The position numbers were made by a program, and so were the translations under genes. A DNA stretch of 64,000 bases from an uncultured cyanobacterium (GTDB lineage Bacteria > Cyanobacteriota > Cyanobacteriia > PCC-6307 > Cyanobiaceae): contig CAIZQU010000152.1 of assembly GCA_903935205.1 (NCBI GenBank), forward strand, positions 24,404 through 88,403, in the 5' to 3' direction. Of the stretch, positions 9,301 to 34,441 are shown in pieces. Every line of letters starts with the position of its first letter. The stretch's first letter is position 1. Below the pieces are notes generated by a model. The model did not search any database. It was given only the letters and a program-made list of their open reading frames with translations, and had not been told where the DNA came from.

Positions 9301-9522
9301 TCAGCCAGCCTTCCAGCGATTGTCGCTGCTGCGGCCCGCCTGCACCATTCTGGCCATGGAACTGACCATCATCGTCAGGGCATCACAGCCCTGGCCACGG
9401 GACTGCAGTTCGGAGGCGATCACCCGTTCGGCGGCGGTGGGAGAGGCGCTGATCGGGCTCCTGTCGGTCGGCTCTGATAGGGAGCGGGACGATGGCCAGG
9501 GAGACGCGGTCAGGGTGTCCAA
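9301..9522 (-). CDS. Small hypothetical protein
   Basis: C-terminal LTMMVSSMARMVQAGRSSDNRW resembles a recalled small picocyanobacterial family; TTG start uncertain. Confidence 0.5.
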   Translation of the reverse strand: MDTLTASPWPSSRSLSEPTDRSPISASPTAAERVIASELQSRGQGCDALTMMVSSMARMVQAGRSSDNRWKAG

Positions 9523-29055: not shown

Positions 29056-29703
29056 ATGCGATGGGCATCAGCGCGTTACCCCATGGCGGCACCATCCCCC
29101 ACCCCTGAGGACTGCCGTAGCGAACTGCTGCGCCGCCTGAGGGAGCGGGGGCGAGCGACGGCGGCGAGCGAGGCCCCGCGCGTCCAGGAGCTGGTGGAAC
29201 GGCTGGAGCGGATCAGACCCGCCAACCTTCTCGCCGACAGTGCGCTCCTGCGGGGCGTGTGGGACCTGCGCTGGAGCAACGGCCGTCAGCCCTATCTGCT
29301 GGCGGCCCCGTGGGTGGAGAATCTGCAGGTGCTGGATCCCGAGCGGGGCAGGGCGATGAACCTGCTGCGGCTCGCCGGGCCCCTCGGCCCGGCCGGGGGG
29401 ATCGCCGTCCAGGCACGGATCGCTGTGGAGGGGCCGCAACGGGTGAGCGTGCGCTTCGTTCGGGGCGGCTGGCTTGGACCGCGGCTGGGGCAGCAGCGGC
29501 TGGAGCTGCTGCGGGAGGTGCGCCAAAGCTTCCCCGCCTGGCTGGACATCACGGTCCTTGACGACGAGCTGCGCGTCTGCCGCGGCAATGCCGGCACCCT
29601 GTTTGCCCTGGTGCGCCGCCCGGATCTGCATCTTGAGGAGATGTTTGCGGACGCGCCGAGCAGCGCTGCGGTGGGTGCGCCTGCTGCGAGCGAACTGGGC
29701 TGA
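29056..29703 (+). CDS. PAP/fibrillin family protein
   Basis: LRGVWDLRWS, ENLQVLD, WLDITVLDDELRVCRGNAG. Confidence 0.88.
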   Translation: MRWASARYPMAAPSPTPEDCRSELLRRLRERGRATAASEAPRVQELVERLERIRPANLLADSALLRGVWDLRWSNGRQPYLLAAPWVENLQVLDPERGRAMNLLRLAGPLGPAGGIAVQARIAVEGPQRVSVRFVRGGWLGPRLGQQRLELLREVRQSFPAWLDITVLDDELRVCRGNAGTLFALVRRPDLHLEEMFADAPSSAAVGAPAASELG

Positions 29704-29841
29704 TCGCCCATTGCGCTCAGAGCGCAAAACCACCAAAAGGGCGATGCCAAGCCGACAGCGGCTGTCTAGCCTTGGTAGACCCTGCAGCGTCAACGCATGG
29801 ATGCAGCAGCCGATTCGGCCACAACCGCAGCAGGAGCGCCG

Positions 29842-30615
29842 ATGAAGTGGCGACTATTCCTCAAGGTGCTGCCCCTCACCGCCCTGTTCGCCCTGGCCAA
29901 GCTGGCGGTTCACGCCAGTGGCCTGGAACCATGGGAATTCAACTCGCTGACGGGTTCCTTGTTCGGAGCGGCAACCTTCGTGATCGCCTTCGTGCTCAGT
30001 GGCACCCTATCGGACTACAACGCCTGCGAAGAACTGATGCTGCAGCTGATCAATGCGGTGGAAGCGATTGAAGACATCAACCGCTACCTCGGCCGCATTC
30101 AGCCGCACCCCAATCAGGCAAATCTGAGCCAGACCCTGGCCGATCTTGTGGAGAAGGTTAGGCACTGGCTGTTGAACACCGATAGCTTCGATCAGGTTCA
30201 GCGGCAGCTGGATCAGCTCAACATAAGCCTCGCCGATCGCCGTCGAGAGAGCGATGATTCAGTGTGTGAACGTGCCCTGCCAGAACTGGCCAAGATTCGC
30301 CTGACATTAACGAAAATGGCAGGCAATCGAAACAGTGATTTCCTGGGTCCAGCCTATGCGATGCTGGAAGTCTTTCTTGCTGGTTCAGTGATGGCACTGC
30401 TGCTGATCGGGTCGGAGCGATTCACGGAAAATGTAGTTGTTTCTTGCTTCCTATTCACATCGTTCACCTATCTGCTGCTGCTGATTCGAGATCTTGATAA
30501 CCCCTTCCAGTACGACGGCAGCTCGGCGGTCGATGTCGATCTCAGCGGCCTCTGCGCTTGCCGCGATCGGCTGCTGACAGCAACAGCAGACAGCGACCGA
30601 GCCCTCAAGAGCTGA
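29842..30615 (+). CDS. Four-TM membrane protein, bestrophin-like
   Basis: FVIAFVLSGTLSDY and LLLIRDLDNPF motifs; two TM pairs separated by a helical domain. Confidence 0.65.
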   Translation: MKWRLFLKVLPLTALFALAKLAVHASGLEPWEFNSLTGSLFGAATFVIAFVLSGTLSDYNACEELMLQLINAVEAIEDINRYLGRIQPHPNQANLSQTLADLVEKVRHWLLNTDSFDQVQRQLDQLNISLADRRRESDDSVCERALPELAKIRLTLTKMAGNRNSDFLGPAYAMLEVFLAGSVMALLLIGSERFTENVVVSCFLFTSFTYLLLLIRDLDNPFQYDGSSAVDVDLSGLCACRDRLLTATADSDRALKS

Positions 30616-30683
30616 GTTTTGCGGGCCAGGCGCTCCCCTGATTGTGCCTCATTCCTTTTTAGCCGACCCGTGCTGCTGAAGCC

Positions 30684-32837
30684 ATGGCTCTCAAGCTTTT
30701 CCGACGCCTTGGCGTCCAATCGAAGGTCCTCTCGATGGTGCTGCTGGCCAGCCTGCTCAGCTTGCTGCTGACGGGCATCGTCAGCTACGCAATCGGCAGC
30801 CGCGTGCTGACCAAAGCTGCCATGAACCAGTTGGTGGTGCTGCGCAACAGCCGGGCGGAGGCAATCAAAGGCTACTTCGAACTGCTCAGCAACCACGTGA
30901 TGACCATGAGCGAGGGGTTTCTTGCCATTGAAGGCATCAGGGATTTCAAGGCCAGCTATCCCAAACTGACCAATTCAAAACTAAACACCGAGCAAAAACA
31001 AAAGCTGACAAACTACTATAACGATGAATTCATTCCCAAGCTGCGCAAGAATATCGAGGGGAATCCCGTGGCAGCCACCTATTTCCCACAGACGCCAGAG
31101 GATCTGTACCTGACCTATCATTACACGGTCAACAATCCATTTCCTGCGGACAGACAGAAGCTCGACGATCCAGGAGACGGCAGCGAATACAGCCAATTTC
31201 ACAAAAAGTACCATCCCAAGCTTCGGCGGATGAGTGAATTATTTAATCTCAGAGACGTTTTCTTGGTCGACATTGATACGACCACCGTTCTCTATACAGT
31301 TTCCAAGGAGGTTGACACGGGTACCAACCTCAAAACGGGGCCCTTCTCTGACAGCGCCCTTGCCAAGACCTTTGAAGAAGTGCGGCGATCGAGGGATCCT
31401 CATTTTATTTACATATCAGACATCGAACACTACAAAGCCAGTTTTGGCGAACCAGCATTCTTTGTAGGCACAACAGTCTTCGACGGCGATCGCTTTGTGG
31501 GGGCATTGATCTATCAGATCAATCCCGAGTCTATTGACATGGTCATGACCGATGACCACCGCTGGGTTCAACAAGGCTTGGGAGAAACGGGCGAATCCTA
31601 TCTGGTCGCAAACGATTTGAAGTTTCGCTCTTCACCCCGTGAGTTTCTTGAAAATCCCAAAAACTATTTTCAACTCCTTCGCCGCCAGGGAACGCCCCAG
31701 GACCGCATCGACTGGATCAAACGCACCGGCAGTCCGGTGTTGATTCAGGCGGTGCGCACCGAAGCAGCGCGACGTGCATTGAACGATCAGACCGGCGAGG
31801 TGGAATATGTTGATTATCGCGGCAAGGAGGCCATTGCCTCGTATCAGCCGATCCGTCTCGGCAATCTGCAGTGGGGTCTTGTCGCCAAGATCGACAAGGA
31901 CGAGGCCCTGCGGGGTGTGCGGCGTCTGCGCGACACCCTGCTACTGCTGGCGGCGATTCTGATCCCGCTTCTGACGATGATGTCCCTGGCTTTGGCACGC
32001 ACATTCATCCGTCCGATTCAGCGCCTGATGAAAGCGACCAAATCGATCGCTGCTGGTGATAGCACAGTACAAGTCAACGTTGAATCGGATGATGAATACG
32101 GCGAACTAACCCGTTCCTTCAATGCCATGGCCAGCACCCTCCAGCAGCGGGAAGAGTCGATCCGCGCCCAGCTCAAGGAAAATGATCGACTTCTGCTCAA
32201 CATTCTTCCTGCACGCACGGCTGAACGGCTCAAGCGCGGTGAGAGCTCGATCACCGAACAGTTCCCAAGCGTCACTGTGCTCTATGCCGATCTGGAGGGG
32301 TTTCAGTCCGTATCAGCCGACCTTGACCCGGAGAAAGCGATCGAAGTTCTCAATGAAATGATCGGCGCCTTCGATGATGCTGCCGAGCGCTACGGCGTGG
32401 AAAAGTTGCGCAGCACCGGCTCCAACTATCTAGCGGTCTGCGGCCTCTCCTTACCGCGCATTGATGACGAGAAGCGCACCGCCGAGCTGGCCCTGGCAAT
32501 GCTGCAGGTGGTCGAGCGGCTCAGTGCCAAGCACGCCCTCAATCTGAGCCTCGACATCGGCATCCACACCGGCGCCCTGGCGGCCGGTGTGGTGGGCAGC
32601 AGCAAGTTCTACTACGACGTCTGGGGGGAAACGATCACCATCGCCCGCGCCATTCATAGCTCTGCCAAGCAGAACGTGATCCAGGTCACAGAACCGCTGG
32701 TGCGCGCTCTGGATGGGCTCTACACCTTCATCCCCCTGGCGGCGATCGAAGTGAAAGGAGAGGGCAGGATTCCGATCTGGGAGCTGCACCGCCTCGAGGC
32801 CCCGATCGCCATTGCCTCCACCACCGTTGTGCCATGA
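30684..32837 (+). CDS. Membrane Cache/HAMP class III nucleotidyl cyclase-like protein (degenerate active site)
   Basis: Two TMs, large periplasmic domain, HAMP (RPIQRL...DEYGELTRSFN), LLLNILP, VLYADLEGF, GIHTG, YDVWG. Confidence 0.9.
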   Translation: MALKLFRRLGVQSKVLSMVLLASLLSLLLTGIVSYAIGSRVLTKAAMNQLVVLRNSRAEAIKGYFELLSNHVMTMSEGFLAIEGIRDFKASYPKLTNSKLNTEQKQKLTNYYNDEFIPKLRKNIEGNPVAATYFPQTPEDLYLTYHYTVNNPFPADRQKLDDPGDGSEYSQFHKKYHPKLRRMSELFNLRDVFLVDIDTTTVLYTVSKEVDTGTNLKTGPFSDSALAKTFEEVRRSRDPHFIYISDIEHYKASFGEPAFFVGTTVFDGDRFVGALIYQINPESIDMVMTDDHRWVQQGLGETGESYLVANDLKFRSSPREFLENPKNYFQLLRRQGTPQDRIDWIKRTGSPVLIQAVRTEAARRALNDQTGEVEYVDYRGKEAIASYQPIRLGNLQWGLVAKIDKDEALRGVRRLRDTLLLLAAILIPLLTMMSLALARTFIRPIQRLMKATKSIAAGDSTVQVNVESDDEYGELTRSFNAMASTLQQREESIRAQLKENDRLLLNILPARTAERLKRGESSITEQFPSVTVLYADLEGFQSVSADLDPEKAIEVLNEMIGAFDDAAERYGVEKLRSTGSNYLAVCGLSLPRIDDEKRTAELALAMLQVVERLSAKHALNLSLDIGIHTGALAAGVVGSSKFYYDVWGETITIARAIHSSAKQNVIQVTEPLVRALDGLYTFIPLAAIEVKGEGRIPIWELHRLEAPIAIASTTVVP

Positions 32838-34441
32838 GCATCGTGGATCTCCTCGCCGCGTCCGCCGGCAGCATGGTCGCGAAGTTGAGTGCCAGCAGCG
32901 CCGCCGCGATCAACCGTCTGAACCCCATCTGGGTGTTCGTTCTGGTGATCGGCTTCCCACTGCTGATGCTGGTGCTGGAGGAGCTTCTGCGATCCCTGCG
33001 CCAACGCCATTCGCACTACCTGGCTCCGCTGGCGATCGTGCGCAACTGGATGCTGCCGGTTCTGGCTCTGTATCTGGTGCTGGTTCAGCTGCTCGGCCGG
33101 CCGCGCACGGCGATCGGTGTGCGCCTGAGCGAGACGCTGATCTGGATCACCCTGATCCTGGCGGCCCTGACGCTGCTCAACGTGATCCTGTTCGAGGGCG
33201 CCGTCCAGGGCAGCTGGCAGGCCAGGGTTCCGAAACTCTTTCGCGATCTGGGCAGCTTTCTTCTGGTGCTCGTCGGCTCAGCGATCGTGCTCTCCAGTGT
33301 CTGGGGCGCTGATCTCGGGGGCTTCCTCACCGCCCTGGGGGTGGGATCGTTGGTGCTGGGCCTGGCATTGCAGGACAGCCTCGGCAACATCTTTTCAGGG
33401 GTCGCCCTGCTGTTTGAACAGCCGATCGGCATGGGCGACTGGATCCAGATCGGTGACAGCCTGGGCAAGGTGGTGGAGGTGAACTGGCGCTCCGTTCATC
33501 TTCAAACCAGCAACGATGATCTGGTGGTCATCCCCAACGCCGAACTGGCCAAGGGGCAATTCACCAACTTCAGCCGTCCCAGCTCGCTGCATCGGCTTGA
33601 GATTCCGATCGCCTTCTCCTATGATGATCCCCCCAATCGTGTGCGCCAACTCCTGATCAGTGCCGCCCTTGAAATCCCTGAAGTTCTGCACAAACCGGCC
33701 CCCAATGTGGTGGTCGTGAACTACGGAGACTTTGCGATCAGCTATTTACTACAAATATATGCCAATGATTTCAACAGTGGAGAAAACATCCGTGACGAGA
33801 TGAATCTTCGCATCTGGTATGTAGCCAGGCGCCATGGCCTGACCATGCCCTATCCGGTGCAGCAGACCCTTCCCTATGCCTCTGCCGTGGACTCCCCGGC
33901 AGAGCAGCGCCTAGCCTGTCTCAGGTTATTGCGCAGCACGCCCGGCTTCGCTGCCATGCCGATCGACCGGCTGCAGCAGATCCTCGACACCTGCCCGATC
34001 CGCGCCTATGCCACCCATGAAAGCGTGCTGCAGCAGCACAGCAGACTTGATGGCCTCTACCTGATCATCAAAGGTTCTGCCGAGCTGCTGGTGGCCGATG
34101 CCAAGGGCATGACGATCAGCCTCGGCGTTCTGCTCCAAGGCGAATTCTTTGGTGAAAAAAGTTCATTGCTCCACGGCCGTGTCGCCGACACCGAGGTTCG
34201 CGCCTGCGACGATCTTGAAGTGCTGTTCATCCCCACGGACCAGCTTCTGGAACTCCAGCTCGATTCCCCACGGCTGGCCGCCGATCTGGCCGAAGTGATC
34301 GAGATCAGGCATCGCGCCCTGCTCGATCTGCTCGGGGCCCATCGCCCCATCGCCGCCAGAAGCCCGACCGCCCTTTCAGCTGCCAGACCGGCCGCACCAC
34401 CATCACCAGATGCTGGTGGTGAGCCTCGCCCGGCCGCCTGA
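32834..34441 (+). CDS. MscS-family mechanosensitive channel with C-terminal cNMP-binding-like domain
   Basis: GLALQDSLGNIFSG, GDWIQIG, VNWRS, VIPNAEL; CNB-like GEFFGE; ATGA overlap with cyclase stop. Confidence 0.92.
   Translation: MSIVDLLAASAGSMVAKLSASSAAAINRLNPIWVFVLVIGFPLLMLVLEELLRSLRQRHSHYLAPLAIVRNWMLPVLALYLVLVQLLGRPRTAIGVRLSETLIWITLILAALTLLNVILFEGAVQGSWQARVPKLFRDLGSFLLVLVGSAIVLSSVWGADLGGFLTALGVGSLVLGLALQDSLGNIFSGVALLFEQPIGMGDWIQIGDSLGKVVEVNWRSVHLQTSNDDLVVIPNAELAKGQFTNFSRPSSLHRLEIPIAFSYDDPPNRVRQLLISAALEIPEVLHKPAPNVVVVNYGDFAISYLLQIYANDFNSGENIRDEMNLRIWYVARRHGLTMPYPVQQTLPYASAVDSPAEQRLACLRLLRSTPGFAAMPIDRLQQILDTCPIRAYATHESVLQQHSRLDGLYLIIKGSAELLVADAKGMTISLGVLLQGEFFGEKSSLLHGRVADTEVRACDDLEVLFIPTDQLLELQLDSPRLAADLAEVIEIRHRALLDLLGAHRPIAARSPTALSAARPAAPPSPDAGGEPRPAA

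Follow-up and report, generated by a model that had tools for sequence, protein, structure and literature searches.

What does a receptor with the fold of an adenylyl cyclase do beside a channel with the fold of a cyclic-nucleotide sensor, when the residues that would make and read cyclic AMP (cAMP) are missing from both? The question is raised by a locus within a 64,000-nucleotide (nt) stretch of DNA – hereafter the window – from an uncultured cyanobacterium of the Cyanobiaceae, a freshwater picocyanobacterium of high GC content (GenBank assembly GCA_903935205.1, contig CAIZQU010000152.1, positions 24,404 to 88,403 of the forward strand). Three genes of its + strand are concerned: gene A (29842–30615), encoding a bestrophin-fold membrane protein; gene B (30684–32837), encoding a 717-amino-acid (aa) receptor with two transmembrane (TM) segments, a dCache-like periplasmic domain, a HAMP domain and a cyclase-homology domain, recognised here as a pseudo-cyclase through Pfam, alignment to solved cyclases and 120 homologues; and gene C (32834–34441), encoding a 535-aa MscS-like channel of the type called bacterial cyclic-nucleotide-gated (bCNG), as judged by Pfam, sequence matches in the PDB, AlphaFold2 and Foldseek. 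An earlier sequence-only reading of the locus had suggested that the periplasmic sensor gates the channel directly, with the bestrophin-like protein as a third, ion-conducting component. Across genomes, a two-gene, messenger-less module made of B and C is well supported as a pattern, and gene A is best read as lying outside it.

In Pfam searches gene B is matched by HAMP (PF00672, 57 bits; 31992–32147) and Guanylate_cyc (PF00211, 134.5 bits), and also by dCache_1 (PF02743; 31248–31886), which at 37.2 bits stays below its cut-off of 45. The dCache_1-like part belongs to a periplasmic region of ~370 aa held between the hydrophobic segment VLSMVLLASLLSLLLTGIVSYAIG (TM1, 30726–30797) and a hydrophobic stretch ahead of HAMP (TM2, 31938–32006); the match of this region to the solved dCache sensors 3LI8 and 3LIB is weak. 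The cyclase-homology domain (32256–32789) aligns with adenylyl cyclase 9 at an E-value of ~1e-44 and with bacterial cyclase structures at ~1e-35. The best sequence matches of gene B are class IIIa cyclases (adenylyl cyclases 9, 8 and 5, and mycobacterial Rv1625c-type structures), with which it has in common the cyclase-homology fold, HAMP, the transducer helix and the first metal-binding Asp. That helix (DRLLLNILPARTAERLKRGE, 32184–32243), which we take to be a cyclase-transducer element, stands ahead of the cyclase-homology domain and aligns to DWLLRNIIPYHVAEQLK of adenylyl cyclase 9. Since its stretch DRLLLNILPARTAERLK likewise aligns with the matching helix of that enzyme, the path from HAMP to the cyclase-homology domain looks intact.

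What separates gene B from the class IIIa enzymes is the active site. In the HMMER alignment with adenylyl cyclase 9, the first metal Asp is present (D536; YADLEGF opposite FADIVGF, 32283–32303), the second is replaced by Ser (STGSNY opposite TLGDCY, within 32400–32438), and GETITIARAIHS stands opposite GDTVNIASRMDT (within 32610–32663), so that the transition-state Asn has become Thr and the slot of the transition-state Arg holds Ala, with an Arg one position earlier. In the adenine pocket the specifying Lys is changed to Arg and the specifying Asp is retained. The six slots taken together read D-R-S-D-T-A, with three of the four catalytic residues gone; this bears out what had been read from the letters alone, namely that the first Asp is kept, the second is turned into Ser, and the catalytic Asn and Arg are lost. 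As the degenerate motifs are essentially invariant across 120 homologues, with identity down to 71%, gene B is predicted to encode a conserved pseudo-cyclase – the fold kept, the catalytic residues lost – and not to be a decaying gene. A reading of the locus as decayed or pseudogenised was rejected on the invariance of these motifs and on the three intact reading frames.

The channel departs from its canonical relatives at a corresponding point. bCNG channels, the bacterial cyclic-nucleotide-gated homologues of MscS, have been known since 2010 (Caldwell et al. 2010; Malcolm et al. 2012; summarised in PMC13591265). Gene C has in common with them an MscS-type membrane and vestibule core and, at the C terminus, a cyclic-nucleotide-binding (CNB) fold, and the family is mostly cyanobacterial. 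Its Pfam matches are to the MscS beta domain (PF00924, 73 bits), the MscS C-terminal domain (PF21082, 56 bits) and cNMP_binding (PF00027, 52 bits), and its sequence matches in the PDB are to MscS, MscK, MscM and YnaI. The AlphaFold2 model (predicted local distance difference test, pLDDT, of 80 overall and ~90 in the CNB domain) recovers MscS in Foldseek searches at E = 2e-16. Positions 33344–33841 encode the pore-lining helix (TM3) together with the beta and alpha-beta domains of MscS, and 34001–34255 the CNB-fold domain.

To place the phosphate-binding residues, we aligned the CNB profile of the family with E. coli CRP and with seven CNB domains of the same genome by profile–profile alignment (hhalign). 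The alignment to CRP is gapless, has a probability of 99.2% and sets R82, S83 and A84 of CRP opposite Ala451, Asp452 and Thr453 of gene C. In the non-canonical phosphate-binding cassette (PBC; FGEKSSLLHGRVADTEVRA, 34148–34204) Ala451 therefore occupies the Arg slot and Asp452 the Ser/Thr slot, and the Gly-Glu of the cassette is retained. Strand beta7 of the AlphaFold2 model, at residues 454–457, is consistent with this register, and the cassette of a paralogous group described below (group 3, FGEMSLFSGEP-S-TV) fixes the position of the Arg slot. The loss of the phosphate-binding Arg, first proposed from a manual alignment, stands on both hhalign and the position of the modelled strand. Two candidates for a substitute were rejected: Arg449 (in HGRV), taken to be the phosphate-binding Arg in a shifted position, because the alignment is gapless and members of the family have R, Q, E or N at position 449; and R492 in the post-barrel helix, as a compensating Arg, because it is equally conserved in channels with the canonical Arg. 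By its predicted architecture gene C is of the bCNG type, and it appears to be so without the defining feature that the family name implies, a cassette competent for cyclic nucleotides.

Elsewhere in this genome (3.8 Mb, 99% complete) the equipment for cAMP signalling looks complete. Two further cyclase-domain genes carry full catalytic sets, a CHASE2 cyclase (TDVRGF / KFIGDA / GDAVNRASRLE) and a cyclase-ATPase-TPR protein of ~1090 aa (CDMVGA / LMGDG / GETPNLAARLQ). Each has, no more than ~2 kb away, a CRP-like gene whose cassette is canonical (RSAD-type) (C93:13233–13784 and C93:15552–15806; C80:20768–21277 and C80:21989–22249), and all three cyclase-domain genes of the genome have a neighbour with a CNB domain. 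Since the other two cyclases keep complete sets, the degeneracy is specific to the B–C pair; cAMP is probably present in the cell, and probably neither made nor read by the pair.

Do B and C belong together? A scan with the channel alignment, taking one genome per species, returned 594 relatives, of which we analysed the best 80 loci; 77 of these were evaluable, and three, with the channel at a contig edge, were uninformative. In 69 of the 77, a co-directional open reading frame (ORF) for a cyclase of ~700 aa lies directly upstream of the channel. The pair-bearing loci include those of Acaryochloris marina MBIC11017, Xenococcus, Phormidesmis, the planctomycetes Aeoliella and a Gemmataceae genome, and a Burkholderiales metagenome-assembled genome (MAG). 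In the window the stop codon of gene B and the start codon of gene C share the tetranucleotide ATGA (32834–32837); among 58 pairs, measured to the nearest start codon, the 4-nt overlap is found in 17, and in 38 the spacing is at most 16 nt. Pairwise distances among the cyclases closely follow those among the channels (Mantel r = 0.952; none of 2000 permutations reached this value), in a comparison that takes in three paralogous groups of the pair from one genus. These groups, ~70–90%, 45–51% and 35–38% identical to the pair of the window, all have the order cyclase-then-channel, from which we infer that the unit was duplicated or transferred whole. The B–C pairing is ancient, and the two genes behave as one unit.

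This conservation bears on a reading in which B and C are neighbours that function independently: the receptor would signal elsewhere or be an ATP-binding pseudo-enzyme, the channel would be gated by tension with a vestigial CNB domain, and adjacency would reflect co-regulation. A 2026 review, which reports no structure for a bCNG channel, calls the physiological role of the family and the part of cyclic nucleotides in its gating unknown and sees no protection by these channels against hypo-osmotic shock (PMC13591265), and this fits independent neighbours. So does the existence of Arg-less channels that have no cyclase within 8 kb upstream (L044–L046, L048, L049 and L062 from Crocosphaera/Cyanothece, L074 from Hyella, and L091; L and G numbers are our labels for loci and genomes); in these the partner may have been either lost or relocated. 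Adjacency in 69 of 77 loci across phyla, the frequent overlap of start and stop codons, the correlation of distances and the joint duplication into three groups are nevertheless more than co-regulation usually preserves, and we consider independent function distinctly improbable.

If the pair is a unit, are both halves degenerate throughout it? Not one of 64 partner cyclases has all four of the first metal Asp (D1), second metal Asp, Asn and Arg in canonical form: one of the four residues is missing in 10, two in 10, three in 29 and all in 15. At the slot of the second Asp, 46 have Ser, and Thr, Ala and Asp are found in 5 each; the catalytic Arg is retained in only 10. The five cyclases that have the second Asp are members of paralogue group 3, and what they have lost is the Arg, which argues that lineages have degenerated in different ways. 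On the channel side the PBC Arg is found in none of 63 partner channels, being replaced by Ser in 41 and by Ala in 18; the group 3 cassette (FGEMSLFSGEP-S-TVTIAA) is canonical but for the residue in the Arg slot. A check on whether the two degeneracies are conserved together, which the sequence-only reading had proposed, is thereby answered in the affirmative on both sides. Among the columns of the cyclase alignment, conservation falls at the 7th percentile for the Arg slot, the 27th for Asn, the 44th for D1 and the 76th for the adenine-pocket Asp, with the fold glycines invariant. Such a profile shows what appears to be selection acting on the cyclase fold, with the catalytic slots unconstrained.

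The most telling comparison is with bCNG channels that have kept the Arg. When 1.84 billion representatives were searched exhaustively with a profile, 3778 clusters passed E <= 1e-30; we examined the best 150, all of which are bCNG-type. Ser occupies the Arg slot in 77 of these 150, and the full canonical cassette GEP-R-[ST]-A is present in 19 of ~142 diverse representatives (~13%), where it is clustered on the tree (5 changes, versus 18 expected from shuffling). For nine canonical channels we examined the genomic neighbourhood, which was evaluable in eight and uninformative in one. A co-directional upstream cyclase is absent at seven of the eight, where the neighbours include cysS, an ABC-3 gene, a radical-SAM gene, a BadF-type ATPase gene and a TIR-TPR gene. 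The canonical channel at L114 adjoins a short cyclase of 375 aa with the full canonical pattern D-K-D-D-N-R (FSDVVGF / KIKTIGDCF / YDLWGDTVNVASRMES). Canonical representatives are thus without a link to Cache-HAMP cyclases: among the Arg-less channels 69 of 77 have a degenerate cyclase of this architecture upstream, against 0 of 8 among the canonical (Fisher p = 2.7e-7, without correction for phylogeny). This inverse pattern – Arg-less and linked, canonical and unlinked – is the strongest support for a coupled loss of cAMP making and cAMP reading.

With moderate confidence, we read B and C as a hard-wired sensor-channel module of two proteins, independent of a messenger and coupled by protein contact. 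Binding of a periplasmic ligand would change the conformation of the dimer of cyclase-homology domains by way of HAMP and the transducer helix; the CNB-like domains of the channel would sense this change through protein contact, and not through freely diffusing cAMP; and the gating of the MscS-type pore, or its tension threshold, would be altered by that contact. The ordinary cAMP pool, with its two competent-looking cyclases and CRP-like readers, would be insulated from the module. It is synteny, translational coupling, co-divergence and co-degeneration that point to direct contact between receptor and channel. The proposal of the sequence-only reading, that the periplasmic sensor gates the channel directly once cAMP is neither made nor bound, has been strengthened as regards the coupled loss, by the 64 cyclases, the 63 channels and the contrast with canonical relatives; the part that it gave to the bestrophin-like protein has not fared as well, as set out below.

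Several points weigh against a contact-coupled module. A dimer of cyclase-homology domains and a heptameric channel make an awkward stoichiometry; the association statistics are uncorrected for shared ancestry; and the AlphaFold2 models are of monomers. Some bCNG channels reportedly behaved in a cAMP-dependent manner in the studies of Caldwell 2010 and Malcolm 2012, which would count here if the measurements were made on Arg-less members. Finally, ten distant partner cyclases (for example that of Acaryochloris) are without the second Asp only, reading D-K-S-D-N-R, and together with the conserved Asp of the adenine pocket they make nucleotide binding, or weak or altered catalysis, possible in the family.

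The last of these points leads to a private nucleotide relay of low affinity, in which a cyclase with weak or altered catalysis, or with another product, would supply a nucleotide bound weakly by the Arg-less CNB domain, such that only the co-localised partner activates the channel, free of cross-talk from global cAMP. Apart from the ten D-K-S-D-N-R cyclases, such a relay is favoured by the fairly conserved Ser at the second-Asp slot (46/64), by an Asp or Glu in the adenine pocket of 61 of the 64 partner cyclases, and by the ribose-contacting Gly-Glu of the cassette, which is present in most channels; responses to cAMP have, moreover, been reported for bCNG channels. It fits poorly with gene B itself, whose D-R-S-D-T-A leaves out three of the four catalytic residues, and with the 44 of 64 partners that are without three or four of them. 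The Arg and Asn slots are also among the least conserved columns, and the Asp or Glu found at the Ser/Thr slot in 35 of 63 channels would repel the cyclic phosphate. On balance we hold the relay to be unlikely, and coupling by contact remains the reading that we favour.

Catalysis could also be restored from outside, if the degenerate domain acted like a mammalian C2 domain and a second cyclase supplied the two Asp residues, so that one active site was rebuilt in a heterodimer. Distant members do resemble mammalian C2 (KTIGSxYMAV, NIAxR), and L028, L039 and G018 have a second Cache-HAMP cyclase downstream of the channel. Both paralogues that flank the channel, however, are without the second Asp (E-Q-S-D-N-G in the upstream copy, Thr or Ala at the slot in the downstream one), gene B is without the Asn and Arg and so would be unable to supply the C2 half, and the other two cyclases of the genome differ in architecture and own complete catalytic sets. 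We give rescue by a heterodimer almost no weight. The loci with the order cyclase-channel-cyclase are an observation in their own right: the second Cache-HAMP pseudo-cyclase lies directly downstream of the channel at 9407–11680 in L028, 9456–11648 in L039 and 4695–6968 in L100 (G018:C120), and both cyclase copies of such loci are without the second metal Asp.

What, then, is gene A? Counted from M16 it encodes 257 aa, and an upstream ATG at 29797 would extend the protein to 272 aa (29797–30615). Its match to PF14023 (Bestrophin-like) reaches 24.5 bits, under the cut-off of 32, and some of its homologues carry a PF14023 match. Although the pLDDT of its AlphaFold2 model is 72.5, and lower in the membrane helices, the top 50 PDB matches of the model in Foldseek are all to KpBest, the Klebsiella bestrophin, over the full length and with TM-scores of 0.52–0.63; a bestrophin fold is thus supported by the predicted model. 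Gene A and KpBest (PDB 4WD7 and others) have in common the full-length fold (TM-score ~0.6) and an acidic-Pro-Phe motif past the last membrane helix; in the family alignment of gene A the motif IRDLDNPFQYDG is invariant, and it lies at 30484–30519 in gene A. The two differ in that identity is only 17–20% and in that gene A is assigned, with its score under the cut-off, to PF14023 and not to the bestrophin family proper.

Homologues of gene A (BEST) accompany the pair in a limited set of genomes. The block gyrA-crtL-PAP-BEST-CYC-CHAN-xth-TPR, in which CYC and CHAN are the pair, is syntenic in L012, L013, L020, L021, L023, L026 and L056 and partly so in L025, and BEST also adjoins the pair in G010, G009 and G032, co-directionally and with short gaps. 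Adjacency and common direction in these eight loci and three genomes are what would be expected if the bestrophin-like protein were an obligate, ion-conducting third member alongside sensor and channel. Such a three-component system is also favoured by the low GC content that BEST shares with the cassette in the window, L012 and L020 (the copy at L093, which has no pair, has a host-like GC content at third codon positions, GC3, of 0.85), and by the supported bestrophin fold. At the genome level, co-occurrence of BEST with pair groups 1 and 2 is 8/11 versus 2/25, a count confounded by shared ancestry.

Linkage of gene A to the pair does not extend further. BEST is not beside the pair in any of the other loci, among them L017, which belongs to the same clade; it was not found beside the more distant pairs among the scanned loci; and in G007, G002, G013 and G018 it lies on a separate contig from the pair. 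BEST also occurs without a pair: at L093, on the gyrA-crtL-PAP backbone, at L092 from Leptolyngbya ohadii, by an aquaporin gene, at L095 and L096, by DUF1622/MarC genes, and in G034. Being adjacent in one Cyanobium subclade only and found without the pair elsewhere, BEST is not a general third component, and an obligate three-protein system seems to us improbable. In our reading gene A is an accessory: in that subclade it accompanies the pair within a low-GC cassette and may be co-expressed with it, but it stands outside the conserved module. The check on co-conservation of all three genes accordingly divided, with the linkage of B and C upheld in 69 of 77 loci and that of gene A failing outside this subclade, which weakens the earlier notion of a third ion-conducting component.

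Two further observations concern BEST genes. At L093 (8001–9328) the order is crtL-BEST-PAP, swapped relative to crtL-PAP-BEST in the window (29056–30615), which suggests a local rearrangement, or that the cassette copy has taken the place of one in the backbone. Most genomes of the same genus (G005, G014, G020, G021, G029 and others) carry distant BEST paralogues of 25–30% identity, several of which share a contig with a group 3 pair, tens of kb away and not adjacent.

How does the pair compare with known systems? Degenerate GGDEF/EAL proteins such as LapD and FimX act as receptors or through protein contact. The B–C pair would follow the same logic, in which folds of second-messenger enzymes are kept as signalling scaffolds after catalysis is lost; it differs in fold and in messenger, and in that writer and reader are both degenerate and are encoded as a fixed pair. 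In M. tuberculosis, Rv2435c and Rv2434c presumably form a comparable arrangement, a cyclase of ~730 aa upstream of an MscS protein of ~480 aa with a cyclic nucleoside monophosphate (cNMP) domain, in an order and with sizes similar to those of B and C. Rv2435c has been grouped with mammalian-type cyclases. Our literature searches found no functional study of Rv2434c, Rv2435c or sll1161, and no description of the double degeneracy of cyclase and channel was found in the searchable literature; neither the linkage of bCNG channels to cyclases nor their degeneracy is mentioned in the review cited above (PMC13591265).

Most of the bCNG family is hard-linked to a receptor with a degenerate cyclase domain, and the nucleotide pocket is degenerate in the same cases: the phosphate-binding Arg that sets canonical bCNG channels apart is absent from gene C as from every cyclase-linked relative examined. 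This turns the vague label of a cAMP-gated channel into a testable hypothesis of messenger-independent coupling from sensor to channel, and it cautions against annotating genes B and C as an adenylate cyclase and a cAMP-gated channel. If true, it would be a case of paired evolution of a pseudo-enzyme and a pseudo-receptor in bacterial cAMP signalling, and it may bear on the unexplained mycobacterial pair Rv2435c/Rv2434c. We tentatively entertain a broader generalisation, which seems to us possible: that the system is a cAMP circuit minus its messenger, in which pseudo-cyclase and Arg-less CNB domain would be a co-evolved docking pair and would make up a two-subunit, MscS-type channel gated by an extracellular ligand, in cyanobacteria, planctomycetes, proteobacteria and probably in Rv2435c/Rv2434c, with canonical-Arg bCNG channels representing the messenger-using state.

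Other features of the pair loci are less directly tied to these questions. Clustering of the flanking ORFs found no recurrent third gene beside the pair and returned only generic ABC ATPase matches. The Cyanobium group 2 pair (L028, L033, L034 and L035; ~2.5–5.7 kb in locus coordinates) lies directly downstream of ABC transporter genes that are nrtC/nrtD-like (or cmpC/cmpD-like), which may hint at what this group senses. At L105 (G013:C2, 5357–7555) an in-frame TGA divides a group-3-like cyclase beside the channel into ORFs of 476 and 256 aa, and the copy is likely pseudogenised; G046:C6 has one internal TAA.

In the window, the A-B-C block is flanked by a PAP-fibrillin gene on one side and by an exonuclease III gene on the other, and the closest database matches to the region are Cyanobium MAGs. 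The GC contents of A, B and C are 0.562, 0.556 and 0.614, compared with 0.66–0.72 for flanking genes, and their GC3 values are 0.67–0.75, compared with 0.81–0.84; these values and the ORF coordinates confirm the early impression of three co-directional genes of lower GC, the last two overlapping by ATGA. Gene A is separated from gene B by 68 nt, and a scan of the + strand of the A-B-C region for terminator-like sites found none; the spacing of the genes suggests that they may be co-transcribed. Just past the PAP-fibrillin stop codon and ahead of gene A, a perfect hairpin (TTGCGCTCAGAGCGCAA, 29709–29727), which has no T-run, may mark the upstream edge of the cassette or the end of a transcript.

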